Numbered from the stretch's first letter, positions 5,815 to 26,100 are shown. The stretch: 36,984 bases of DNA from Nanobdellota archaeon (GCA_027623355.1 JAQBWB010000001.1:1-36984); one strand, 5' to 3'. Program-made: numbers and translations. Notes: a model not told the origin generated them from the sequence alone.

Positions 5815-6090
5815 TTAGTATAAAAAGGTTATTGGTCTTAGAGTATCTCCGATGAGCGTTAGGAGCAGTTGCATCTTCAGGGCAAAATTTGCAGATCCTA
5901 TGTAGTCGATCTTTTTTTCAAGTCCATGAGAATGGTGATGTTCTGAGGCGGAGACACTATCTTCACCTGTTGCAAGATTATAGGCGATTCTTCCGAGAGG
6001 TGTTAGTAAATAGGCACCTCCTGCTATTCCTGCAGCTCGTTCTCCAACAAGTCTAAAAAACGCTCTCCTAGAATGGTTATCTTTTTCCAT
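5815..6090 (-). CDS. Small protein with a twin-arginine-like signal (start moved to internal ATG 6090)
   Basis: MEKDNHSRRAFFRLVG followed by a hydrophobic h-region (AAGIAGGAYLL) and a His-rich patch (EHHHSH). The longer 139-aa version would overlap the divergent gene and its promoter. Confidence 0.35.
   Translation of the reverse strand: MEKDNHSRRAFFRLVGERAAGIAGGAYLLTPLGRIAYNLATGEDSVSASEHHHSHGLEKKIDYIGSANFALKMQLLLTLIGDTLRPITFLY
5819..5826 (-). promoter_or_regulatory. TATA box (tttttata on the - strand) for leaderless proS
   Basis: Lies 22 nt upstream of ATG 5796. Confidence 0.5.
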
Positions 6091-6199
6091 TTTTCTCTTG
6101 TTTTGAGGTGAATTTAGTCTCGTTTTTAAGGTTATGGTTTCTACAGAAAGCTTTATATATAGACTATATACTACCAAATATATTCGAGATAAAAAGGAT

Positions 6200-7078
6200 A
6201 TGAATATACGAAACGTACAGAAAACAGGGAACATGCATTATGTGTACCTGCCGACTAGTTGGTGCAAGCAATATAACATTAGTTCTTCATCGAAGGTAAG
6301 TGTTACTGCTAATAACGACGGTAGTTTAACGGTTTCTCCTGATACGCGTGAGGCTGAACAGCACCATTTGACCTTAGATGTTCCTGAGGCATCGTCTTCT
6401 ATGTTGATTAAATTGATTATGGCGTGTTACGTTAATCCTACGCAGTCTTTTACATTAAAACTTGCGAAGCAGACTAATCTTGCTGCGTTATTGGATAAAA
6501 GAAGATCTATCTCTGCTCTTGAATTTGTTGAATTAGAGGGGGACACTATTACTCACGAATCTAGCATCTCTATTAAGGACCCTAAAACTATTTTGAAGAT
6601 GATGGTGAAGAAGATTCACAGTTTGTCACATGTTATGCTTGAAAATTATGATCGCAATCTTATTAACCGTTATGAGGAGGAGATTGACAAAAGTAAATTG
6701 TTGATTACGAAATCGGTTGTTAGTTCGCTTGCTGATAACGCAGTTATGGTGATAAAGCCACTCGATTTACATTATATCGCTTTACTTGCTAGTCATCTGG
6801 AGCGGATGGTTGATTCGTTGATAATGGTTGACAGCAAGGAGACTGCATTCTTGAAGCAGGTCTCTGCACTATTAGGTTCACTTAAGGAATTAACCGATCG
6901 GCTTTCTAGTCTTGATTTAACTCGTGTTATTGATTTTGAGGCTGAGGTTAGTGCATTGAAGACTCCTGACGTTAATAACATCAAGACTTATGGAATGCGA
7001 CGTATAAGAATTAATCTCAATAAGGTCACTGAGGTGCTCTTTGATTGGGTCATTAGCAACAAAATTATTAAGAAGTAA
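6200..7078 (+). CDS. AbrB/SpoVT-domain plus PhoU-like repeat regulator (paralog 1)
   Basis: The N-terminus VQKTGNMHYVYLPTSW aligns with GFGKNSLAITLPKSW of the paralog at 29996-31033, and a helical PhoU-like region follows. ATG 6200 was chosen over 6134 by alignment with the paralog. Confidence 0.65.
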   Translation: MNIRNVQKTGNMHYVYLPTSWCKQYNISSSSKVSVTANNDGSLTVSPDTREAEQHHLTLDVPEASSSMLIKLIMACYVNPTQSFTLKLAKQTNLAALLDKRRSISALEFVELEGDTITHESSISIKDPKTILKMMVKKIHSLSHVMLENYDRNLINRYEEEIDKSKLLITKSVVSSLADNAVMVIKPLDLHYIALLASHLERMVDSLIMVDSKETAFLKQVSALLGSLKELTDRLSSLDLTRVIDFEAEVSALKTPDVNNIKTYGMRRIRINLNKVTEVLFDWVISNKIIKK

Positions 7079-7146: not shown

Positions 7147-7455
7147 ATGTTGGGAATCATACAAGAATTAAAGGAAACTGAGAAGAAAGCAGCTTTAAAT
7201 ATCGAGAGTGCTGGTAAAAAAGCAGTCGAGGATTTGGCTAAAGCTGAACAGGCTGGAAAGGATGCAGGTGATGCTTTGCAGGTCAAGATGGACAAGGAGA
7301 AACTTGATAAGTTAGCAATAGCTCAAAAAGAGGTTGATGCTGAGGTTGTAAAGATAGAGTCCCAGGGTAAAAAGGAGCTTGAGTCTTTGAAAAAGGCAGC
7401 AACTAGTAAGAAGACGAAAATTGTTGAGGCTGTTACGAAAGCACTATTAGAATGA
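7147..7455 (+). CDS. atpH: A-type ATP synthase subunit H
   Basis: 102-aa Lys/Glu/Ala-rich coiled-coil protein at the first position of an HIKECFABD operon. GGAGG lies 8 nt upstream. Confidence 0.75.
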   Translation: MLGIIQELKETEKKAALNIESAGKKAVEDLAKAEQAGKDAGDALQVKMDKEKLDKLAIAQKEVDAEVVKIESQGKKELESLKKAATSKKTKIVEAVTKALLE

Positions 7456-9398
7456 GTAAACCACTTGAGATGAGCAAGGTTACGCTTTTTGCTCTGCAGA
7501 AAGAGAGGAGTTCTTTATTAAGCGAGATTCAGTCCTTAGGAGTATTGCAACCGGTTGAGATTAAGCGCGATGCAGTCGAGGAATTAGAGAAACCTAAACA
7601 GATTACCTCGATAAAGGAGGTTGCCGATACATTGATTGGTGTCTCTCGAATGGTTCGTATTTTGAAGTTGGCTCCTAGAAAAACTGACATGGTTCAAAAT
7701 GTTTTGGGCTTAGAATTATTAGACAAAAGAAAGGTTGAGAGGAAAAATGATGCTGAAGTTATCAAAGGTGCTCAAACATTTTTAGAGGCCCATGAAACTT
7801 CATTAATTACGCTTGAGATCGAATATACTACTCTTGTTGAGGAGGAAGATGAGTTGAATACTCATAAACAAGTTATTGAACAGCTTTCTGCTTTAGGCGT
7901 TCCGTTATCTGAACTTGCGGATACGGACAAACTGGGCATTCTTATTGCTCGAGTTCCCGTTGAACAGGCTGCAGTTCTTAGGACTGCCTTGGAATCGAAA
8001 AAGACGGTTGCATTTGAGATGAATGCACTTTCTAAAAAGGAATATATAGTTACCCTTATTTCTTTACAGCGATTATTACTTGATTCCACTACTTTATTGA
8101 AACAGCAGGGGGCTTCAATTCTTAGCTTACCTACATGGGCTTTAAAGGAGCATCCCGGTAGGTACATTAAGTCTCAATTGACCGAGGTTAGCGATAAGAA
8201 AAAGGCAGTTATTGAAAGAATCGCTAAACATGCTAAGTCGCTATTCGAGGATGCCGTTATTTTTAGAGAGGAGTTGGAGATTGTTAAGAATAGATTGGAA
8301 ACGGTGCATAAGATGCTTGATTCTTCTAGCTTTTTTGTGATGCAGGGATGGATTGCTACTAAAGACGCAAATCATTTTGAGGAGAAGATAACGAAAAAGA
8401 TTGATGCGGTTAGTGTGCTTGTGGAGGAACCTTCTAAGGATGATGTTGTGCCAGTAGCATTACAAAACAGGAAATCTTTGAAACCGTTTGAGATGCTTAC
8501 AGAACTTTATGCATTGCCAAAATATGGTGATTTAGATCCTACTTTTATTGTTGGTCCTTTATTCTTGATTTTTGCAGCATTCATGTTGACGGATGCAGTG
8601 TATGGATTAGGACTCGTATTACTTGGAGCCATTATTCTAAAGAAATTTGCAAAATATGATGAAGGATTGAAGCAGATTGGTATTATTATTGCTGGAATGG
8701 GTAGTTTGACTGTTTTATTCGGGGTATTAACCGGATCGTACTTTGGTGATTTACCTAAGTATTTCTTTGGTGTATCGTCTGAACAGCTTGCATTTTGGAA
8801 AGATCCTCTTGCTGATCCGTTGTATTTTCTGATTTTATCTATTTCGGTTGCGATCCTTTACTTGAACATTGGTTTCGTTCTTGGTATGATGGAGGATTTG
8901 CGCAAGAAGGATTACAAAACGATGGTTAAGGACAGAATATTATGGTTTTTGTTGCAAATTGGTATTGCTTTGCTTGTTTTGAAGTTTAATCCTCCTCTTT
9001 TATTTGGTGTGGGTTTAGCTACCTTGATTATTGCTGCTGCGGTGATTGGAATAGTTGTGATGCATGGTCCGCTTGGTTTACTAGGAATCTCTGGATTAAT
9101 GGGCGATATGATATCGTTTTCTAGATTATTTGCGTTGTCGTTATCAACAGCAGGCATTGCACTTGCGGTTAACTTGCTTGCTAACTTAGTAAGTGAGGTT
9201 CCTTATGTGGGTTTATTACTAGCCGTACTTATCTTTTTGATTGGTCACGCATTTGGTTTTGTTATGAACTCTATTGGAAGTTTTGTACACGCGTTACGAT
9301 TGCAATTTGTTGAATTTTTCGGTAGATTTTATGAGGGTGGCGGAGATAAATTTTCGCCACTAAAAGAGGAACGCTTCTATTCGGAGGTCGAGGAATGA
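7452..9398 (+). CDS. atpI: A-type ATP synthase subunit I (stator a-subunit homolog)
   Basis: 648 aa with a soluble N-terminal half and a polytopic C-terminal half that includes the conserved Arg region (FSRLFALSLS). ATGA overlap with atpH. Confidence 0.9.
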   Translation: MSKPLEMSKVTLFALQKERSSLLSEIQSLGVLQPVEIKRDAVEELEKPKQITSIKEVADTLIGVSRMVRILKLAPRKTDMVQNVLGLELLDKRKVERKNDAEVIKGAQTFLEAHETSLITLEIEYTTLVEEEDELNTHKQVIEQLSALGVPLSELADTDKLGILIARVPVEQAAVLRTALESKKTVAFEMNALSKKEYIVTLISLQRLLLDSTTLLKQQGASILSLPTWALKEHPGRYIKSQLTEVSDKKKAVIERIAKHAKSLFEDAVIFREELEIVKNRLETVHKMLDSSSFFVMQGWIATKDANHFEEKITKKIDAVSVLVEEPSKDDVVPVALQNRKSLKPFEMLTELYALPKYGDLDPTFIVGPLFLIFAAFMLTDAVYGLGLVLLGAIILKKFAKYDEGLKQIGIIIAGMGSLTVLFGVLTGSYFGDLPKYFFGVSSEQLAFWKDPLADPLYFLILSISVAILYLNIGFVLGMMEDLRKKDYKTMVKDRILWFLLQIGIALLVLKFNPPLLFGVGLATLIIAAAVIGIVVMHGPLGLLGISGLMGDMISFSRLFALSLSTAGIALAVNLLANLVSEVPYVGLLLAVLIFLIGHAFGFVMNSIGSFVHALRLQFVEFFGRFYEGGGDKFSPLKEERFYSEVEE

Positions 9399-12300
9399 TT
9401 TTCGGTAGTGGACTTGTTGTTAGTGAAAGTATCGTTCAATCGATCTTAAGTCCGGTTTTGGATATTTCTACTACTGTTTCTACTGGAGGGGTTGCTAATG
9501 CAACTGCTACTGTACTTACTAATGCTTCGGCAGTACTTGTTGAACATAGCTCTACGTTTTTGGGTCTTGATTTTTCTGGTATTGATGGAAAATCACTTGC
9601 GATTATTGGTGCTGCTATTGCTGTTAGTGCCGCTGGTATTGCATCTGCGGTTGGAGCTGGGATTGTGGGTGCTACTGGAGCTAAGGAGGCCGCTGAGGAT
9701 CCTAAGCGCTTTTCTACTGCTTTATTGTTTCAGGCATTGCCTCAGACACAAGGTATTTATGGATTTTTGATTGCTATTCTTATTTTATTGGGTGCTGGAT
9801 TGATTGGTGCTGCTAAGGAGATTACGATTGCACAGGGACTTGGTTCGGTTGGAGCTGGATTGGCTGTTGGAATCGCTTCTGTTTCTGCTATTGGGCAGGG
9901 TCTCGCTGCATCAGCTGGTATCGGTGCTACCTCTCGTGATAAAAAGATGTTTGGTAAATCTATTCTGTTTTCAGTCTTGCCGGAGACACAGGCATTGTAT
10001 GGATTTTTGATTGCTATTTTGATACTCGTTGGCTTTGGTATGTTTGGTTCGGCTCCCGTTGACATTTCTATTGGTGCTGGTTGGGCTGCTATAGGTGCAG
10101 GTCTTGCTATTGGGATTGCAGGTATTTCTGCTATTGGGCAGGGTACTGCTGCTGCATCTGCTATTGGTGCTGTTTTAGAAAAATCAAAATCTTTTGGAAA
10201 GGCTATTATTTTTGCAGTATTACCTGAGACACAGGCATTGTATGGATTCATTATCGCTATTCTTATTTTAATTGGATTTGGTATTCTTGGTGCTGGAACA
10301 ACAACTGTTTCGTTTGGAGTTGCCTTATTTGCTATTGGTGCAGGTTTATCGGTTGGACTAGGTGCTGTTTCTGCTATTGGGCAGGGTATTGCTGCTAGTG
10401 CTGGTATTGAAGCTGTTGCTAAGAGTGATAAGTCGTTTGGAAAGGCTATTTTGTTTTCAGTCTTACCGGAAACACAGGCATTGTATGGTTTTTTGATTGC
10501 TATTTTGTTGTTAGTTGGCGCTGGCGTATTAGGTGCCGCTAAGGCAGGTATTACTACAGCTATGGGGGTTGTTGCTATTGGTGCTGGCCTTGCTGCAGGA
10601 GTTGCTGGTATTTCTGCTATTGGGCAGGGAATTGCTGCTGCATCTGGAATTTCTGTTGTTACTGCGAAACCTAAATTGTTTGGAAAAGCTATACTTTTTT
10701 CAGTCTTGCCGGAGACACAGGCATTGTATGGATTTTTGATTGCTATTCTTTTACTTGTTGGAGGCGGTATTTTGGGTGCTGCAAAAGCAGGATTATCTAT
10801 TCACGTTGGTTTAATTGCTATTGGTGCTGGTTTGGCAACTGGACTTGCTGCTGTATCTGCATTAGGTCAGGGGATTGCTGCTAGCGCGGGTATCGAAGCT
10901 GTTGGTCGAGATGAGAAGTCTTTTGGTAAGTCGATTTTATTTTCGGTTCTTCCTGAGACACAGGCATTGTATGGATTTTTGATTGCTATTTTATTATTAG
11001 TTGGAGGCGGTTTATTAGGGGCTGTTAAGACAGGATTGAACATGTCTGTTGGCTTGATTGCTATTGGTTCTGGATTGGCAACTGGACTTGCTGCTGTATC
11101 TGCATTAGGTCAGGGGATTGCTGCTGCATCTGGATTGCGTGAAACTGCTAAGGATCCTAAGGCTTTTGGTAAGTCGATTTTGTTTTCAGTCTTGCCGGAG
11201 ACACAGGCATTGTATGGATTTTTGATTGCTATTTTATTATTAGTTGGTGGAGGTATCCTTGGAGGTAACTCTTCAAGTGGTTTAACCTCTGGAGTTGGTC
11301 TTGTTGGAATTGGAGCAGGTATTGCTGTTGGTTTAGCTGCAGTTTCAGCTATCGGACAGGGTATTGCTGCTGCAAGTGGTGTTAGTGCTACTGCTAAAGA
11401 TGGTAAGATGTTTGGAAAATCTATTTTGTTTTCAGTCTTGCCTGAAACTCAGGCATTGTATGGATTTTTGATTGCTGTTTTATTTATGATTGGAGGAGGA
11501 TTATTTGGTGCTGTAGAGGTTGGCATTACCACTCCGGTTGGACTTATTGTTATTGGAGCTAGCTTAGCTGTTGGGATTGCAGGTATTTCTGCTATTGGAC
11601 AGGGTATTGCTGCGGCTTCTGGAATTGATGCTGTTGCTAAAAATGAGAAGTCGTTTGGAAAGGCTATTTTGTTTTCAGTCTTGCCGGAAACACAGGCATT
11701 GTATGGATTCTTAGTTGCTATTCTTTTATTAGTTGGAGGAGGATTATTAGGAGCAGTTAAACAGGGCATTAGCTTATCTGTTGGATTGGTTGCGATTGGG
11801 GCTGGTTTATCGGCTGGACTTGCTGCTGTATCTGCATTAGGACAGGGTTTCGCTGCTTCGGCTGGATTAGCAGCTACTGCACGTAATCCTAAATCTTTTG
11901 GTAAGTCGATACTCTTTTCAGTTCTTCCTGAAACTCAGGCTTTGTATGGATTTTTGATTGCTATTTTATTATTAGTTGGTGGCGGTATCTTAGGTGCAAC
12001 AAGCACTGGATTGTCTGTAGGTATTGGTTTAGTTGCGGTTGGAGCTGGATTAGCAGTTGGATTGAGTGCGTTCTCTGCTGTTGGGCAGGGGATTGTTGCT
12101 AGTACTGCTGCGGATGTTGTTAGTAACAACGAGAAGTCTTTTGGTAAGTCGATTCTATTTTCAGTACTGCCTGAAACACAGGCATTGTATGGATTTTTGA
12201 TTGCTATTTTGTTGATTGCATCAGGTGGATTGATTGGTGCTGCAGCTGGCGAGATTCCGATGTCTATTGGTTTAGTTGCGGTTGGAGCAGGACTTTCTGT

Positions 12301-12724
12301 TGGAATTGCCGGCTTATCGGCTGTTGGACAGGGAATTGCTGCTGCTTCTGGTGTCGGATCGATTGCTGAAAAAGAGAATGTCTTTGGTAAATCTATTTTG
12401 TTTTCAGTCTTGCCGGAGACACAGGCATTGTATGGAATTATTATTGCGGTGTTATTATTAACTGGAGTCGGTTTACTAGGTACTTTGAAGACCGGCATTA
12501 CACTAGTACAGGGATTAGGGGGAGTTGGTGTAGGACTTACCATGGGACTTGCAGCAGTTAGTGCTGTGGGTCAGGGAATAGTGTCTGCTTCATCGATTGG
12601 TGGGGTGGTTAGAGACAATAAGAGTACGGGGAAGAGCTTGGTATTAAGCGTTATTCCCGAGACGTATGCAATATTTGGATTATTGATAGCAATACTTTTG
12701 CTTATTGGATTACAACTGATATAG
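9395..12724 (+). CDS. atpK: A-type ATP synthase proteolipid subunit K, 13 fused hairpins (26 predicted TM helices)
   Basis: The motif GQG...FGK(S/A)ILFSVLPETQALYGF repeats at an 81-aa period. Helix-2 carboxylates are E197, 278, 359, 440, 521, 602, 684, 765, 846, 927, 1008 and 1089. Hairpin 1 has Q117 instead. ATGA overlap with atpI. Confidence 0.9.
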   Translation: MIFGSGLVVSESIVQSILSPVLDISTTVSTGGVANATATVLTNASAVLVEHSSTFLGLDFSGIDGKSLAIIGAAIAVSAAGIASAVGAGIVGATGAKEAAEDPKRFSTALLFQALPQTQGIYGFLIAILILLGAGLIGAAKEITIAQGLGSVGAGLAVGIASVSAIGQGLAASAGIGATSRDKKMFGKSILFSVLPETQALYGFLIAILILVGFGMFGSAPVDISIGAGWAAIGAGLAIGIAGISAIGQGTAAASAIGAVLEKSKSFGKAIIFAVLPETQALYGFIIAILILIGFGILGAGTTTVSFGVALFAIGAGLSVGLGAVSAIGQGIAASAGIEAVAKSDKSFGKAILFSVLPETQALYGFLIAILLLVGAGVLGAAKAGITTAMGVVAIGAGLAAGVAGISAIGQGIAAASGISVVTAKPKLFGKAILFSVLPETQALYGFLIAILLLVGGGILGAAKAGLSIHVGLIAIGAGLATGLAAVSALGQGIAASAGIEAVGRDEKSFGKSILFSVLPETQALYGFLIAILLLVGGGLLGAVKTGLNMSVGLIAIGSGLATGLAAVSALGQGIAAASGLRETAKDPKAFGKSILFSVLPETQALYGFLIAILLLVGGGILGGNSSSGLTSGVGLVGIGAGIAVGLAAVSAIGQGIAAASGVSATAKDGKMFGKSILFSVLPETQALYGFLIAVLFMIGGGLFGAVEVGITTPVGLIVIGASLAVGIAGISAIGQGIAAASGIDAVAKNEKSFGKAILFSVLPETQALYGFLVAILLLVGGGLLGAVKQGISLSVGLVAIGAGLSAGLAAVSALGQGFAASAGLAATARNPKSFGKSILFSVLPETQALYGFLIAILLLVGGGILGATSTGLSVGIGLVAVGAGLAVGLSAFSAVGQGIVASTAADVVSNNEKSFGKSILFSVLPETQALYGFLIAILLIASGGLIGAAAGEIPMSIGLVAVGAGLSVGIAGLSAVGQGIAAASGVGSIAEKENVFGKSILFSVLPETQALYGIIIAVLLLTGVGLLGTLKTGITLVQGLGGVGVGLTMGLAAVSAVGQGIVSASSIGGVVRDNKSTGKSLVLSVIPETYAIFGLLIAILLLIGLQLI
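9587..12721 (+). repeat. 13 in-frame tandem units of about 243 nt, one proteolipid hairpin each
   Basis: Regular 80-82 codon spacing of the PET motif. Several units share identical stretches of 40 nt or more, such as ttttcagtcttgccggagacacaggcattgtatggatttttgattgctatt. Confidence 0.9.
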
Positions 12725-13288
12725 GTGATGACAATGAACGGCGCTGAAAACATAAAAAAAGAAATGCTTGAAGAAGCACAACAGGAAGTTGAAAAGATAC
12801 AAAAAGAGGTAGCCGAGAAAATCGATGTCTTGAAGAAAGAACATGGATCTATTAGAGATGCCTATGAAACGCAACGCAAGCATGAGATTGCTCGAGCTGC
12901 TGCATTATTAACCGATAAAACCTTGGCTCGAACTAGGTTACAGGTTAAGAGAAATTACCTGATTGAACGAGAAAAGGTTGTTGAAAGCATTGTTAAGAGT
13001 GCTAGTAAGGTAAGCCATAGCGATAAGGTGTATCAGAACTACCTCAAGGCGCTTGTTAATGAACATGTTGGAAGTTTGAAGGGTAAGATTACTATTCATT
13101 GTAATAGTAAGGATGTTTCATATGTTAGTGGTCTTGTTGACGGGATTGCGGTTGAAGAAGCGGACATTGATGGAGGTATCATTGTTGAAAATGATGCTGG
13201 TAAAAAGATTAATGAATCTTTCTTGGAGTCAATTGAGAGAAGAATGGATATGGTTCGAGAGGTTGTTGTTAAGCACTTAGGAAAATGA
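12725..13288 (+). CDS. atpE: A-type ATP synthase subunit E
   Basis: Charged coiled-coil N-terminus and globular C-terminus, about 185 aa, in the operon position after K. The start is ambiguous: GTG 12725, ATG 12728 or ATG 12734. Confidence 0.85.
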   Translation: MMTMNGAENIKKEMLEEAQQEVEKIQKEVAEKIDVLKKEHGSIRDAYETQRKHEIARAAALLTDKTLARTRLQVKRNYLIEREKVVESIVKSASKVSHSDKVYQNYLKALVNEHVGSLKGKITIHCNSKDVSYVSGLVDGIAVEEADIDGGIIVENDAGKKINESFLESIERRMDMVREVVVKHLGK

Positions 13289-14319
13289 TTGATGTTACCG
13301 TACCTTTAGTTGTTGGCGGCGCTGCGGTAGCTGGGCTTGTAGTCATCGCGCCGATAACGAAGTATGCATTGGATATGTATCCTTACTTGTATGCTAACAC
13401 GCGTTGTGCTAGTCGTGCTGGGTTGTTGTTAACGAAGAAGCACTACGATGATTTATTGGGTGCTGGTTCGATTGAGGAAGTCTATGGTGGACTGGAAGAT
13501 AGTTCATATGCATCAATAGTCGAACATCATAAAGACTTTTTTTCATTTTCACGTGGCTTGGAGCAGGATTATGTTGAAACCTTATCCTGGATTCAGGAGA
13601 TTAGTCCTAACACGGTTAAGGGTGTTGTATCGGCATTGCAGAAACGCTCTGAAATTAATACGTTAAAGGAAATTATGGGTAATTTGAAGAATAAGAAGGA
13701 GTTGCCTTCTTTGGTTGGTATTGCTGATGCTACACTTCGGGTAAGGATTGAGGGAATCAAGGATATGCAGGGCTTTCAGGTAGCTTTAGAAGGAAGTGTG
13801 TATGGTGAGTTGCTTGCGAGTATTGATTTAGAGAGAATGGCCGAGATTAATACGTCATTAGATCGTTTCTATCTAGAGCAGTTGCAGGATGCTATCTCTA
13901 GTGTAAAAGATAGTGATGTCAAAAGTGCGTTTCTTACCTATGTTACCGTTCTTATTGATTTATTTAATGTTCGCCTTGCGTTAAGGAGTAGTGGGCAGGT
14001 GAGCTATTTGGAAGGTGGGGTGCTCGATTCTGAGGCTTTGGCTTCTGCCGCAGATAATACTCAACTTGAATCGGTGTTTAGTGCTAGTGTGTATGGTGAA
14101 GGGATGAGTGGGTTTTCTCTTACAAAGCTAGAGCAGGCTTTTATTTCTTACCTTCAAAAACAGGCGGAGATTATTGGAGTTAAATATAATCTGAAGGCTG
14201 GGATGTTGTTACGTTATTTAATTCACAAAGAAATTGAGATTAGAAATGTGAATGCGTTGGTTAAATTAAAATCTGAGGGATTTGATGCTGAAGAAATCAG
14301 ATCGTATGTGGTGGTTTAG
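13285..14319 (+). CDS. atpC: A-type ATP synthase subunit C (V-type d homolog)
   Basis: 344-aa helical protein in the operon position between E and F. ATGA overlap with atpE. Confidence 0.85.
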   Translation: MIDVTVPLVVGGAAVAGLVVIAPITKYALDMYPYLYANTRCASRAGLLLTKKHYDDLLGAGSIEEVYGGLEDSSYASIVEHHKDFFSFSRGLEQDYVETLSWIQEISPNTVKGVVSALQKRSEINTLKEIMGNLKNKKELPSLVGIADATLRVRIEGIKDMQGFQVALEGSVYGELLASIDLERMAEINTSLDRFYLEQLQDAISSVKDSDVKSAFLTYVTVLIDLFNVRLALRSSGQVSYLEGGVLDSEALASAADNTQLESVFSASVYGEGMSGFSLTKLEQAFISYLQKQAEIIGVKYNLKAGMLLRYLIHKEIEIRNVNALVKLKSEGFDAEEIRSYVVV

Positions 14320-14450: not shown

Positions 14451-14465
14451 TTGGGAGATGATATC

Positions 14466-14759
14466 ATGGAAATAGGAATACTCGCGGATCAGGATACCTT
14501 GATGGGCTTTAGGGTAGCGGGAGTTACGCGAAGTGTGTTGTTTGATCTTGAAACGTTGAAGGAGGATTTGAAACAGCTGGATGATGTTGCTATTTTATTG
14601 GTTACTGAAAAAATAGGAATAGAAATTAGAAAATTAGATGTTACGATTTCACCTGTATTAGTTGGTGTACCTGATAAAGGTGGAAGTACAGGGAATGCGT
14701 TATTAGAGATTGCTAAACTTTACGAAGAGGCAATCGGTGTAAAACTCAAGGAAAAATAG
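14466..14759 (+). CDS. atpF: A-type ATP synthase subunit F
   Basis: MEIGILADQDTLMGFRVAGV is a typical F-subunit N-terminus. ATG 14466 is preferred over TTG 14451. Confidence 0.85.
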   Translation: MEIGILADQDTLMGFRVAGVTRSVLFDLETLKEDLKQLDDVAILLVTEKIGIEIRKLDVTISPVLVGVPDKGGSTGNALLEIAKLYEEAIGVKLKEK

Positions 14760-14771
14760 GAGGGATATGAT

Positions 14772-16532
14772 ATGGTAGAAGGAATAATTATTAAAATTTC
14801 AGGACCGGTTGTAGTCGCTAAAGACATGGCAGGTGTAAAGATGTATGAGGTGGTTAGAGTCGGTAACGAAGGCCTTATTGGCGAAGTTATTGAGCTCTTT
14901 AAAGATAGGGCTACGATCCAGGTCTATGAGGAGACTTCAGGTATGCAGCCAGGCGAGAAAGTTGTTTCGCAGGGTCAGTCGTTGTCTGTTGAATTAGGAC
15001 CGGGTATCATGGGTAATATCTATGATGGTATTATGAGACCGTTGAAACAGATTCAGAAAAAATCTGGTGCGTTCATGGCTCGTGGAATTGATGCTGATGC
15101 AATTGACCACAAGAAGAAGTGGAAGTTTGTGCCTTCGGCTAAAAAGGGTGACCAAGTTATAGGCGGACAGATTATTGGTGAGGTTGCAGAGACTTCAGCT
15201 GTTGTTCAGAAAATTATGATTCCCCCTCGAGTTTCGGGTGAAATTAAAAAAATTGTTAAGACTGGCGAGTATACAGTTACTGAGAGTATAGCTACTGTCG
15301 CTACACAGGATGGAGATGTTGAGGTACAGCTGTCACAGAAGTGGCCTGTTCGAAACCCACGTCCCGTTAAAAGTAAGGAAGAACCTACGATTCCTTTGAT
15401 TTCTGGTTTGCGTATCTTGGATACGTTTAATCCAGTTGCAAAGGGAGGTACTGCTGCTACGCCTGGTGCTTTTGGTACCGGTAAAACAGTAACTCAGCAG
15501 AGTCTTGCTAAATGGTGTAATGCAGATATTATTGTCTACATTGGCTGTGGTGAAAGAGGAAATGAGATGACGGATGTTCTTAAGACCTTTCCTGAATTGG
15601 TAGATCCACGATCTGGAAAGCCGTTACTTGAAAGAACGGTTATTATTGCTAATACCTCGAACATGCCCGTTGCCGCTAGAGAGGCTTCGGTCTACACCGG
15701 TATTACGATTGCTGAATATTTTCGAGATATGGGCTATGATGTTGCATTGATGGCTGATTCGACTTCACGATGGGCTGAAGCTATGCGTGAAATTTCATCT
15801 CGTCTAGAAGAGATGCCAGGTGAGGAGGGATACCCTGCTTATCTGTCAACTCGATTAAGTCAGTTCTATGAACGAGCTGGTCGTGTAACGCCGTTAGCTG
15901 GTGGTAATGGTTCAGTTACTATTATTGGGGCTATTAGTCCTCCCGGTGGAGACTTTTCGGAACCGGTGACACAGAATACGTTGCGTGTTAACAAAACGTT
16001 CTGGGCTTTGGATAAGAGTCTTGCTAGTAAAAGACACTTTCCAGCTATTAATTGGTTGACCTCGTATTCGTTGTATTTAGATACGGTAACGGACTGGTTT
16101 AATGAACATTCTGGTAGCGATTGGAGAGATCTTCGAGACAAGGCAATGGGATTATTGCAGAAAGAGGACCAGTTGCAGGAGATTGTGCAGTTGGTTGGTC
16201 CGGATGCACTTCCTGATAACGAGCGTGTTATTCTTGAGGTTACTAAAATGTTGCGAGAGGATTTCTTGCAGCAGAATGCGTTTCTCGAAGAAGATGCATA
16301 CTGTCCAATTGAGAAGCAGTACTTAATGCTGAAATTCATTCTTGAGTTTTATGATAGGGCTCAGGAAGCTTTGAAAAAGGGTGTTAAGACTGAGGCGATT
16401 GCTGGACTTGCTATTAAAGAAAGGATTGCTCGAATGAAAGAGGCTAAGAATGAGACATTCGGCGATCATTACAAGGAGTTGCAAGCTGAAATGAGCTCGC
16501 AGTTTTCAAAAGTTGGAGGGGATGCACAATGA
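14772..16532 (+). CDS. atpA: A-type ATP synthase catalytic subunit A
   Basis: P-loop [10 protein letters not shown], the non-homologous insertion region typical of A/V-type A subunits, and LAEYFRDMG. 586 aa, contiguous, no intein. Confidence 0.97.
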
Positions 16533-17911
16533 GTAAAGGCGTAGAGTATACTAGCATTCGTGAAATTGCAGGACCTCTTTTAATTGTAGAAGATGTAGAC
16601 GGTATTGCGTTTGGTGAACTTGTTGAAATCAAGTTAGATAATGGTGACAAACGAACTGGCCAGGTTTTAGAGGCTCGAGATGATTTAGCTGTTATTCAGG
16701 TGTTTGAAGGAACTCGTGATTTGGCAACTAAGGGTATCTCGGTGCGATTTACTGGTGAAACTATGAAGGTTGGCTTATCGAAGGATATCATTGGACGTAT
16801 CTTCAATGGAGTTGGAAAACCTATCGATGGTGGACCGGCAATTATTCCTGAGAAGCGAGTAGATGTTAATGGACTTCCCATTAATCCAACGGCGCGAGAA
16901 TTTCCGGACGAATTTATTCAAACAGGTATTTCAACAATTGATGTGATGAATACTTTGGTTAGAGGACAGAAACTGCCTATCTTTTCTGAAGCAGGATTGC
17001 CGCACAACGAGCTAGCCGCTCAGATTGCGCGTCAGGCTAAGGTGAAGGGAGATGGTGGAAACTTTGCTGTTGTATTTGCAGCTATGGGAATTACGTTCGA
17101 GGAAAGTCAGTTTTTCATGAAGGACTTTGAAAGAACTGGAGCCATTGAAAATATGGTTGCTTTCATTAACTTAGCAGATGATCCAGCAATTGAGCGTATC
17201 ATTACGCCTAGAATTGCTTTATCGGCTGCTGAGTATCTTGCGTTTGAACACGATATGCATATTCTGGTTATCTTAACGGATATGACCAATTATTGTGAAG
17301 CATTGCGAGAGATTGCAGCAGCTCGAAACGAGATTCCTGGAAGACGAGGATATCCGGGATACATGTATACAGATCTTGCTATGAATTACGAACGTGCAGG
17401 TAAAATCAAGGGTAAAAAAGGATCTGTAACTCAGATTCCTATCTTGACGATGCCGCAGGGAGATATTTCTCACCCGATTCCGGACTTGACGGGATATATT
17501 ACTGAAGGGCAGATTGTTCTCTCCAAGGAACTTCATACCAAAGGTATCTATCCTCCGATTAATCCGTTGCCCTCTTTATCACGTTTGATGAATGAGGGTA
17601 TTGGTAAAGGTAAGACACGAGATGACCACGCAGGTGTATCGAACCAGCTGTATACGGTGTATGCAGAGGGAAGCGAACTGCGTGATTTGGTTGCTGTTGT
17701 TGGTGAGGAAGCGTTATCGGTTCGAGATAAGCAGTTCTTGGATGGTGCTGAGGCGTTTGAGAGGACGTTTATTACGCAGTCTAAGGACGATAATAGGGAC
17801 ATTGCTGCTTCGCTTACAATTGGTTGGGATATCTTTAAGTTAATCCCGAAAACCGAGCTTAAGAAGCTCAAGCAGGAGCATATCGATAAACATTTGGGAA
17901 AAACTGAATGA
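16529..17911 (+). CDS. atpB: A-type ATP synthase subunit B
   Basis: 460 aa with motifs such as [15 protein letters not shown] and ITEGQI that are conserved in A/V-type B subunits. ATGA overlap with atpA. Confidence 0.97.
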
Positions 17912-18051: not shown

Positions 18052-18675
18052 ATGGCATCAAAAATACATGCAGCAACTCGAATGGAGTTGCTTCGATTAA
18101 AGAAGAAGGCTAAGCTAGCTGCGAAAGGATTTAAATTGCTTAAGCAGAAGCGAGATGCACTTATTTCTGAGTTCTTTTCTTATATCGATAAGTTGAAGGT
18201 TATTCGTACTGAGATGGAGGATAAGTTGGCGGTTGCCTACAAATCTTTGATCTTGGCTCAGGCATTGTCTGGTGGTCCTGAAATTGAACGTGCTGCATCT
18301 GCTTCTAGTGCTGCGTACTCAATTGAATCTTCAACTAACAATATTATGGGTGTTGAGGTGCCTGCTTTCAGGGCAACTGAACTAACAACTGAGGCAGGAT
18401 ACAGTAAATTGTCGCCTTCTTTGGAATTAGATAGTGCTCGCACTAATTTTAAGGAGTCTCTTGCTATTATTATTAAGTTGGCTGGAGCTGAGGCTACGGT
18501 TCGCAAATTAGCAGCTGAGATTAAGAAAACTAAAAGAAAGGTCAATGCTTTGGAGCGTATTCTTATTCCTCGGATTAATAATGATATCACTTACATCAAG
18601 GTTCGTCTTGAGGAGTTGGAGCGAGAGAACTTTGCCAGATTGAAGGTCGTTAAAAAACGTATTGAAGTGCAATGA
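18052..18675 (+). CDS. atpD: A-type ATP synthase subunit D (central stalk)
   Basis: 207-aa coiled-coil protein with TRMELLRLKKK at the N-terminus and LEELERENFARLK at the C-terminus, both typical of the D subunit. GAGGTGAAGAGG lies upstream. Confidence 0.9.
   Translation: MASKIHAATRMELLRLKKKAKLAAKGFKLLKQKRDALISEFFSYIDKLKVIRTEMEDKLAVAYKSLILAQALSGGPEIERAASASSAAYSIESSTNNIMGVEVPAFRATELTTEAGYSKLSPSLELDSARTNFKESLAIIIKLAGAEATVRKLAAEIKKTKRKVNALERILIPRINNDITYIKVRLEELERENFARLKVVKKRIEVQ

Positions 18676-23040: not shown

Positions 23041-26100
<3,060 letters not shown>

Follow-up and report, generated by a model that had tools for sequence, protein, structure and literature searches.

The 36,984-nucleotide stretch of Nanobdellota archaeon DNA analysed here (GCA_027623355.1, JAQBWB010000001.1:1-36984; hereafter the window) carries an A1AO ATP synthase/ATPase operon in which the proteolipid subunit, K, is a single chain of 13 fused hairpins, and this gene probably encodes the whole membrane rotor of the enzyme as one polypeptide, as judged from its sequence. 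The K open reading frame (ORF) starts with ATG and runs for 1109 amino acids with zero internal stops; its coordinates and length, as well as the 13 helix-loop-helix units with a period of 80-82 residues announced by the original prediction, were found to be correct. Pfam places 13 PF00137 (ATP-synt_C) stretches in the protein (686.7 bits, E = 5.7e-212), and the helix-2 motif P[EQ]T[QY] occurs 13 times, at residues 116, 196, 277, 358, 439, 520, 601, 683, 764, 845, 926, 1007 and 1088, with successive spacings of 80, 81 (five times), 82 and 81 (five times) residues. At the DNA level, Tandem Repeats Finder (TRF) reports periods of 243 and 486 nt. The protein has a calculated mass of 106.6 kDa, a grand average of hydropathy of 1.15 and a Gly, Ala and Leu content of 47%. 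The gene has a GC content of 0.43 and the window one of 0.40, which agrees with the low GC claimed earlier; the genome of Methanopyrus kandleri, with whose K the protein is compared below, is rich in GC. The NCBI entry (MDA1196343.1, locus tag O2779_00055; P0001 in our homologue set) is annotated 'hypothetical protein', a label that several relatives also carry. The parts of the gene are as follows.

9395..12724, plus strand: subunit K, 13 fused hairpins (ORF and 13 PF00137 stretches)
9395..9577, plus strand: N-terminal tail of K, residues 1-61, Ser/Thr-rich (predicted local distance difference test score, pLDDT, below 50)
9578..9817, plus strand: K hairpin 1, residues 62-141, no carboxylate (motif reading)
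9818..12493, plus strand: K hairpins 2-12, residues 142-1033, full ligand set, SA(I/L/V)GQG and PETQALYG (motif reading)
12494..12721, plus strand: K hairpin 13, residues 1034-1109 (motif reading)

The gene lies between those of subunits I and E in a full A1AO operon with the order H-I-K-E-C-F-A-B-D, its start ATG overlapping the stop codon of subunit I (ATGA), and there is no second K gene elsewhere in the window.

7147..7455, plus strand: probable subunit H, 102 amino acids (by position; no Pfam match)
7452..9398, plus strand: subunit I, stator a-subunit, 648 amino acids (PF01496)
12725..13288, plus strand: subunit E (PF01991)
13285..14319, plus strand: subunit C, d-type rotor socket (PF01992)
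14451..14759, plus strand: subunit F (PF01990)
14772..16532, plus strand: catalytic subunit A (PF00006, PF16886, PF22919, PF02874)
16529..17911, plus strand: subunit B (PF00006, PF22919, PF02874)
18052..18675, plus strand: subunit D, central stalk (PF01813)

An ORF of 102-112 amino acids occupies the subunit H position in every related operon. Subunit I contains both conserved Arg motifs (SFSR558LFAL and HALR616LQFVEFF), and its nearest solved relative is NtpI of the Enterococcus hirae Na+-ATPase (8wci_P, E = 5.6e-48). The PF00137 fold, the helix-2 carboxylate in 12 of the 13 hairpins and the position next to an Arg-bearing subunit I mark K as an A/V-type ATPase proteolipid.

The ligands of the putative ion sites were mapped by aligning hairpins 1 and 2 of the window protein to E. 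hirae NtpK, for which ligand assignments have been published. The Na+ site of NtpK lies between neighbouring hairpins, the upstream one providing the L61 carbonyl, T64, Q65 and the stabilizing Y68 and the downstream one providing Q110 from helix 1 and E139 from helix 2 (PMC2359735); the ProAD rule for multi-hairpin subunits asks for [S/T]-[S/T/Q]-x-x-Y in one hairpin and for [Q/E]...E in the next. In window K, all of the interfaces from 1>2 to 12>13 are complete, each with the five Na+-type side-chain ligands, and the strict ProAD criterion holds 12 times. Interface 13>1, at the seam between the chain ends, deviates in four of the five side-chain ligands: hairpin 1 lacks the Glu and the helix-1 Gln, and hairpin 13 lacks the Gln and Tyr of the upstream half-site. 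Hairpin 1 (SAVGAG ... FQALPQTQGIYGF, LPQTQGIYGF) has A88 in place of the helix-1 Gln (nt 9656-9658) and Q117 in place of the Glu (nt 9743-9745), and retains T118, Q119 and Y122, the half-site for its interface with hairpin 2. Hairpin 13 (SAVGQG ... LSVIPETYAIFGL, IPETYAIFGL) has Y1091 in place of the Gln (nt 12665-12667) and F1094 in place of the Tyr (nt 12674-12676), and retains Q1060 and E1089, the half-site for its interface with hairpin 12. The motifs SA(I/L/V)GQG and (F/L)SV(L/I)PETQALYGF, which had been ascribed to each hairpin, are therefore absent in this form from hairpins 1 and 13, and hairpins 3 (FAVLPETQALYGF) and 12 (motif ending in YGI) also vary. The deviations, 4 in 65 ligand positions, all fall in one interface, the chance of which is 9.6e-5 for any interface and 7.4e-6 for the seam specifically.

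Since the four seam changes remove exactly one inter-hairpin site, 13 hairpins would hold 12 Na+-type sites and, with the standard three ATP per turn, the rotor would carry 12 ions per turn, or 4.0 ions per ATP (12/3) instead of 4.33 (13/3). A genetically fixed ring stoichiometry had been proposed; as read from the one chain, the number of sites would be 12 and not 13. The Q(helix 1)...ET(helix 2) pattern that had suggested Na+ binding is borne out by the full NtpK ligand set at the 12 interfaces, and Na+ is the best-supported hypothesis for the coupling ion.

Evidence bearing on ring closure comes from 31 full-length fused K proteins, in which the Tyr of hairpin i was compared with the Glu of hairpin i+1. 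The Tyr is missing at 22 of 22 internal interfaces that lack the downstream Glu, and the Glu is kept in 327 of 327 hairpins that follow a Tyr-bearing one (p = 3e-28); the controls, which pair the Tyr of hairpin i with the Glu of the same or of the preceding hairpin, display no comparable link. The same pairing extends from the last hairpin to the first, with both residues absent from 25 of 25 proteins and both present in 6 of 6. The rule is also valid across the chain ends, and it is most simply explained if the two terminal hairpins pack on each other in the way that internal neighbours do, hairpin 13 contacting hairpin 1 and the ring closing on itself. An AlphaFold2 (AF2) model of the single chain, computed from a 17-sequence alignment, has a predicted template modelling score (pTM) of 0.82 and a mean pLDDT of 80.6; values below 50 are confined to residues 1-61, and confidence drops little from the internal to the terminal hairpins. 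Two-hairpin stretches of this model superpose on NtpK (2bl2_A) with a root-mean-square deviation of 1.3 Å over 149 columns in a Foldseek comparison with the PDB. The single-chain rotor that had been expected from 13 fused hairpins is thus supported by the canonical operon, the hairpin count in orthologues, the covariation at the seam and the AF2 model.

The predicted topology is that expected for K subunits, the 13 helix-1/helix-2 loops having 27 Lys/Arg residues in total and the inter-hairpin linkers 6. These linkers are approximately 12 residues long, rich in Gly, Ser and Thr and devoid of a conserved cleavage motif. Ahead of hairpin 1 is the 61-residue tail, which the original prediction did not mention. 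It contains two N-X-S/T sequons, N35 and N43, both of which, together with the first 13 residues, are conserved in the orthologue P0081, and its dN/dS against that protein (0.27) indicates a coding segment that is more relaxed than the hairpins. The tails of the homologues span 37-92 residues and contain 2-7 N-X-S/T sequons, with nearly no sequence conservation except for a conserved junction, FLG(L/M)DF..(D/N)GK; no classical signal peptide is evident on the tail of window K. The abundance of sequons in the tails of the window clade suggests an extracellular, possibly glycosylated appendage on the rotor, which in window K is predicted to be disordered.

In the arrangement proposed here, the 13 hairpins (26 transmembrane helices) would stand side by side and close on themselves, 13 against 1, with both chain ends and the sequon-rich tail outside the cell and the 13 Lys/Arg-rich helix-1/helix-2 loops facing the cytoplasm, where they would meet subunit C. 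Each site would receive a backbone carbonyl, Thr, Gln and Tyr from hairpin i and the helix-1 Gln and Glu from hairpin i+1. Twelve of the 13 interfaces would possess the full Na+-type set, the seam having lost ligands on both sides, and each turn would take 12 ions past both conserved Arg residues of subunit I and include a single silent step of double length.

The number of units is not readily explained by assembly. The DNA units of K have a mean identity of 66% (range 42-81%), and the longest exact repeat is 55 bp. The orthologue P0081, 91% identical to window K in amino acids and 81% in nucleotides, also has 1109 residues, aligns without indels and repeats all 13 motifs, down to the PQTQ of hairpin 1 and the PETYAIF of hairpin 13, and is found in a syntenic operon on seven contigs from one ENA and two JGI samples. 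Further versions concur: P0082 has 1109 residues and P0084 has 1106, the 3-residue gap being confined to the tail. Between window K and P0081 dN/dS is 0.085 overall and 0.027-0.127 for single hairpins, at a pS of about 0.5, and the most constrained unit is the site-less hairpin 1 (0.027); the overall value rules out a pseudogene or a non-coding repeat. The hairpins of the two proteins also display strict positional orthology, with no detectable conversion over this divergence. Diverged units, orthologues of the same length and purifying selection on each hairpin exclude assembly expansion and pseudogene status for practical purposes, and the 13 units can be taken as real, in agreement with the earlier view. 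Some relatives that are otherwise 100% identical differ by exactly one 81-residue unit at varying positions (P0013/P0003, P0013/P0092 and P0002/P0005), the contigs of P0003 and P0013 differing by 243 bp. These one-unit differences may be either assembly collapse or real copy-number polymorphism through unequal recombination, and some '12-hairpin' entries may accordingly be collapses or copy-number variants.

A word-indexed search through 5.8 billion proteins gave 80 matches at E <= 1e-20, whose hairpins were counted with a hidden Markov model built from the window's units and confirmed with Pfam for representatives. The fused forms fall into the following groups of metagenome-assembled genomes (MAGs) and named lineages.

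Nanoarchaeota-, Nanobdellota- or Woesearchaeota-labelled or unlabelled MAGs, about 20 clusters: 12-13 hairpins (P0002-P0023)
Methanopyrus/Methanopyri: 13 hairpins (P0018, P0019, P0024, P0026, P0027, P0037)
'Euryarchaeota' and unlabelled MAGs: 12 hairpins (P0028-P0038)
Thermoplasmata-labelled MAGs, with a PKD domain: 6 hairpins (P0042-P0072)
Promethearchaeota-labelled MAGs: about 15 hairpins (P0073-P0077)

The label of the sister clusters of the window protein is 'Candidatus Woesearchaeota archaeon'. When 1.84 billion representatives at 50% identity were scanned exhaustively, no more than 28 proteins reached E <= 1e-30, the giant K forms being reduced to a handful of clusters at this identity. 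In a survey of 71 diverse A/V-type operons, obtained from a genome scan with the window's subunit A that detected operons 57-66% identical in many phyla, K has 1-3 hairpins, with one each in a 'Nanoarchaeia' MAG and a Micrarchaeota MAG. Every fused K that was checked sits directly after subunit I. The fused design is rare but recurrent. Assignments of PF22619 and PF22648 to some of the homologues were rejected as spurious sub-threshold matches inside the hairpin repeats.

Within this set the number of sites differs. In P0003 and P0007-P0015 whole sites have been lost at interfaces 5>6, 8>9 and 9>10, each time through two coupled substitutions: the Tyr of hairpin i has become Met (SIIPETQALMGF) and the Glu of hairpin i+1 has become Gln (GVLPQTQALYGF). 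This leaves 9-11 sites in rings of 12-13 hairpins; the maximum of 12 is kept in window K and P0002. The Thermoplasmata-labelled proteins (P0042-P0072; locus L088, 9001-10863) have a signal peptide and an extracellular PKD domain ahead of 6 hairpins, which hold 5 sites, and are encoded in a canonical operon; two such chains would make a 12-hairpin ring, on which a folded extracellular domain would ride as it rotates. P0028, P0031 and P0034 (locus L086, 7001-10357) have 12 hairpins with the 6-hairpin site pattern in tandem and silent seams at 6>7 and 12>1, and in a neighbour-joining (NJ) tree their A subunits and the A subunits from the 6-hairpin operons form sister groups (98%); these proteins look like a duplication-fusion caught in the act, from half ring to whole ring. 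The subunit A of L086 also contains an intein. The Asgard-labelled proteins P0073-P0077 (locus L084, 7001-10441) are approximately 1110-1150 residues long, with 15 hairpins and a Glu in all of them, and have no Na+ ligands (I/E/A/L/Y, H+-type); in L084 K comes right after subunit I, Mrp/Nuo-type antiporter genes lie upstream and the other ATPase genes are scattered. They appear to form a third, separate family of single-chain rotors. A Methanomicrobiales MAG has an operon with a one-hairpin K and, some 6 kb away on the other strand, an additional gene for a 3-hairpin K (VQTQY QETQY QETFF; L019, 908-1657, minus strand).

When each hairpin is written as a site signature (helix-1 Gln, Glu, Thr, Gln, Tyr), two grammars emerge. 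All sites are intact in the Methanobacterium-type 2-hairpin K (QETQY QETQY) and in the K of Methanopyri, which has the Glu in 13 of 13 hairpins and QETRY at hairpins 6, 9 and 12. A site-less seam marks the NtpK-like 2-hairpin K (VGTQY QETYL), the Methanocaldococcus-type 3-hairpin K (AQTQY QETQY QETFF), the 6-hairpin K (VQTQY, four QETQY, QETFF), the 12-hairpin K (the 6-hairpin pattern doubled, or 10 internal units) and window K (AQTQY, eleven QETQY, QETYF). Window K would be the fully fused end of this series, in which a site-less first hairpin is followed by n complete ones and a last one without Tyr (n = 0, 1, 4, 10, 11), and its fusion would have arisen separately from the Methanopyrus rotor with all sites intact.

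Comparisons of single hairpins are in line with this view. The hairpins of window K match those of close relatives such as P0002 one to one, and those of P0023 at the terminal hairpins, but the per-hairpin comparison with Methanopyrus that had been suggested found no positional match, the terminal hairpins being 47% and 41% identical and not best in their rows. The closest counterparts of hairpin 1 are the first hairpins of other seam-type K proteins, with 3, 6 and 12 hairpins; the first hairpin of NtpK, in turn, is best matched by hairpin 1 of the window. The NJ tree of hairpins (78 columns) is weakly resolved, with bootstraps of 5-81%, and for this reason site signatures and terminal hairpins were relied on instead. 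A period-3 amplification in Methanopyrus K (lag-3 identity 66% against 60-64% at other lags) was too weak to be used as evidence; among the hairpins of window K no clear lag signal was found, although TRF scores the 486-nt period. In the NJ tree of subunit A (200 bootstraps, weak deep nodes), the window clade (100%) groups with Methanobacteriota operons that have a 2-hairpin K, and Methanopyrus with Thermococci, Methanocaldococcus and L085; window and Methanopyrus group together in 0 of 200 bootstraps, as do all fused K operons as one clade. In a comparison with loci L001-L005 and L028, the subunit A of the window, a DPANN-labelled contig, is also closer to 2-hairpin-K Methanobacteriota operons (distance 0.46-0.50) than to the 1-hairpin 'Nanoarchaeia' operon (0.57), a hint of either a transferred ATPase operon or multiple origins of DPANN ATPases. 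An independent origin of the window fusion is the most likely reading of these sequences. Of the alternatives offered by the original prediction, an independent fusion or a second lineage, separateness from Methanopyrus is upheld by the signatures and the A tree, but the window represents one of several lineages: dozens of 12-13-hairpin K proteins are already in public databases, in addition to the ~15-hairpin K of Promethearchaeota.

The closest described system is the K of M. kandleri, the 13-hairpin 'monomeric rotor' of Lolkema and Boekema (2003, as cited in PMC2359735), for which PMC2359735 gives 1021 residues, 26 transmembrane segments and the full Na+ set in all 13 hairpins. A 2022 paper gives the number of K hairpins as '1, 2, 3, or even 13 hairpins' (PMC9171764), and ProAD (2025) groups K subunits by hairpin number, illustrating 1 and 2 alone. 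No further description of a 13-hairpin or fused K was found in the searchable literature, which leaves subscription-only papers outside it and includes the citers of the 2003 report, so that M. kandleri is still the sole described case there. The two proteins share a single ORF of ~1000-1100 residues, 13 PF00137 hairpins, a position between I and E, ~50% identity and the Na+-type Q...ETQ..Y motifs. They differ in that the Methanopyri K has no altered end hairpins and no tail, whereas in window K the full set is not present in every hairpin, interface 13>1 being stripped; their A subunits are not sisters. Taken on its sequence, window K is of the same kind as the Methanopyrus monomeric rotor but a distinct variant, with a silent seam, a sequon-rich external tail, a different evolutionary route and relatives that display paired site loss.

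Its site grammar is identical to that of the Methanocaldococcus-type 3-hairpin K (L009, AQTQY / QETQY / QETFF), which has one complete internal hairpin against eleven in window K, and a ring of such proteins would need several chains, losing one site per chain. The M. jannaschii K is reportedly a case of two sites in three hairpins. Triplication of the K hairpin has been cited before (PMC2359735). Among solved structures, E. hirae NtpK (PDB 2BL2) is the nearest relative of window K (E = 7e-19), with the same five ligands; its first hairpin (SAKGVG...LPGTQGLYGF) scores best with hairpin 1 of the window (148 against at most 119), and its last helix (ETYAILG) resembles that of hairpin 13 (ETYAIFG). 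An equivalence of NtpK hairpin 2 with window hairpin 13 was rejected, because this is not the best pair (99 against up to 122) and the likeness is limited to ETYAI(L/F)G. The NtpK ring comprises ten chains, 20 hairpins and 10 sites (50 chains in five PDB entries), and half of its interfaces are silent, compared with one in window K. Also among the Foldseek fold matches is the Acetobacterium woodii F/V-hybrid c-ring (PDB 4BEM), a working Na+ rotor ring with a carboxylate-less hairpin and thus a precedent for rotation past a silent position; it is F-type and, unlike window K, is built from separate c1 and c2/3 subunits. The 6- and 2x6-hairpin K proteins of Thermoplasmata-labelled and related MAGs share the end-hairpin grammar (VQTQY ... 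QETFF) and the operon position of window K, and differ in their N-terminal signal peptide and PKD domain; six hairpins are too few to form a ring from one chain, and the 12-hairpin forms keep 6>7 as a second silent seam.

Several points weigh against a 13-hairpin, self-closing Na+ rotor of independent origin. The one-unit differences between close relatives indicate that repeat number can be mis-assembled or polymorphic in this family, and a true gene with fewer hairpins, expanded by short-read assembly of a tandem repeat, would fit such mis-counting; this is nevertheless hardly credible for the window, given units that are merely 42-81% identical, each with its own substitution history under purifying selection, and the same count in P0082, in P0084 and in an orthologue with 19% nucleotide divergence that comes from at least three independent samples and seven contigs. 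The closure of the ring is open to other objections: the PDB holds no K chain of more than two hairpins, Foldseek matching two-hairpin pieces only; the wrap-around covariation contrasts essentially two clades (seam-dead and Methanopyri), with few independent events; and AF2 scores are indirect evidence. The covariation fits head-to-tail packing of two chains equally well, a contact between chains that the 6-hairpin relatives require, and the linkers are the least confident parts of the 13-hairpin model (pLDDT 54-67), as might suit cleavage into smaller proteolipids or a ring of two or more chains, for instance with 26 hairpins. Such arrangements are nonetheless quite improbable. Thirteen hairpins lie within the range of c/K rings, 9-17 in a review table (PMC7594442), and not far from the 12 single-hairpin chains of V/A-ATPase K in each of the PDB entries 5gar and 6qum, whereas 26 would surpass the 20 of the E. 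hirae ring, with its ten two-hairpin NtpK chains per entry. The short linkers without a conserved cleavage motif argue against processing, the monomer model has a pTM of 0.82, and lengths of 12 and 13 hairpins recur in several lineages, counts of 7-11 being seen only on truncated contigs, which fits selection for 'one chain = one ring'.

Of the remaining doubts about the single-chain Na+ rotor, one concerns the ion. A Na+ motif alone does not prove the use of Na+, and some archaeal enzymes with this motif use both ions. Ion prediction from motifs is imperfect, JGI annotations of close homologues vary between 'H+-transporting' and 'H+/Na+-transporting', and in a review table the M. kandleri ring is given as H+ (PMC7594442); coupling to H+ or to both ions, although unlikely, deserves real weight. 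Against it stand the five NtpK side-chain ligands at 12 interfaces, the nearest solved relatives of both K and I, which are subunits of the E. hirae Na+-ATPase, the joint loss of Tyr and Glu in relatives, as if the whole Na+ cage were removed, and an 81%-identical fragment from a TARA ocean sample, a Na+-rich habitat. The other doubt concerns origin, where the weak resolution of the hairpin trees and the NJ-only A tree with its weak deep nodes limit what can be said. An ancient fusion shared with Methanopyrus might have spread by descent or transfer, its signal erased by conversion and its seam lost secondarily: both proteins have 13 hairpins and ~50% overall identity, the A subunits of all multi-hairpin-K archaeal operons lie in one broad NJ cluster of 22, and the internal hairpins of window K are 67-82% alike, more than they are to Methanopyrus hairpins, as concerted evolution could bring about. 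This too is improbable, since the terminal hairpins, which are usually spared conversion, are unlike the Methanopyrus ends and do match the first hairpins of the seam-dead 3-, 6- and 12-hairpin K proteins and of NtpK, no conversion is detectable between the window and P0081, and the A subunits have different neighbours and never group together. With the separate origin of the window fusion preferred, it is possible, although a little short of probable, that single-chain rotors are a recurrent archaeal invention with at least three origins and an ion-to-ATP ratio tuned site by site at constant ring size; the evidence points to Methanopyri, to the site-less seam series (12-13 hairpins in Woesearchaeota-like DPANN and other MAGs) and to the H+-type, ~15-hairpin K of Promethearchaeota.

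Outside the operon, the window is an ordinary archaeal chromosome, with genes for ribosomal protein S3Ae, ZPR1, ProRS, GyrB, pyrB/pyrI, a mechanosensitive channel and one tRNA-Gln. The GyrB gene (23041-26034, minus strand, 997 amino acids) contains an intein (PF14890, residues 491-794, E = 2e-19) just ahead of the Toprim domain. Just upstream of the ATPase operon are two ORFs that overlap by ~100 nt and have no Pfam match (6134-7078, plus strand, 314 amino acids; 5815-6234, minus strand, 139 amino acids); at the same position the orthologous loci L081 and L082 have ORFs of 217 and 261-293 amino acids, also with no Pfam match.

The stoichiometry of the ring sets the ion cost of ATP; in homo-oligomeric rings it is unreadable from the sequence, and here it can be read. 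The relatives show the number of sites shifting in single steps from 9 to 12 and, each hairpin being separately encoded, evolution could set the ion-to-ATP ratio one site at a time. If so, 9, 10, 11 or 12 sites in a ring of 12-13 hairpins would correspond to 3.0 to 4.0 ions per ATP, with the window at the maximum and, if functional, such a rotor would amount to a natural 'gearbox' that is programmed genetically and has its symmetry broken from the outset. Unique hairpin sequences and one silent interface could allow electron cryo-microscopy to assign absolute rotor positions, unlike in symmetric rings, and the silent step past subunit I could be followed structurally in the asymmetric ring. 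The site-less seam series of 2, 3, 6, 12 and 13 hairpins provides a concrete path to multi-hairpin proteolipids, including the V-type with one site per two hairpins. The concept of a monomeric rotor dates from 2003 and the sequences are publicly available; the wide range of fused K proteins, the seam rule and the stepwise tuning of sites are apparently undescribed, and they make stoichiometry and rotor asymmetry directly testable. Many DPANN lineages have been reported to lack rotary ATPases (PMC11738941), and a complete, strongly conserved operon whose rotor is of Na+ type and high ratio is relevant to the ways in which membranes are energized in these small-genome archaea.

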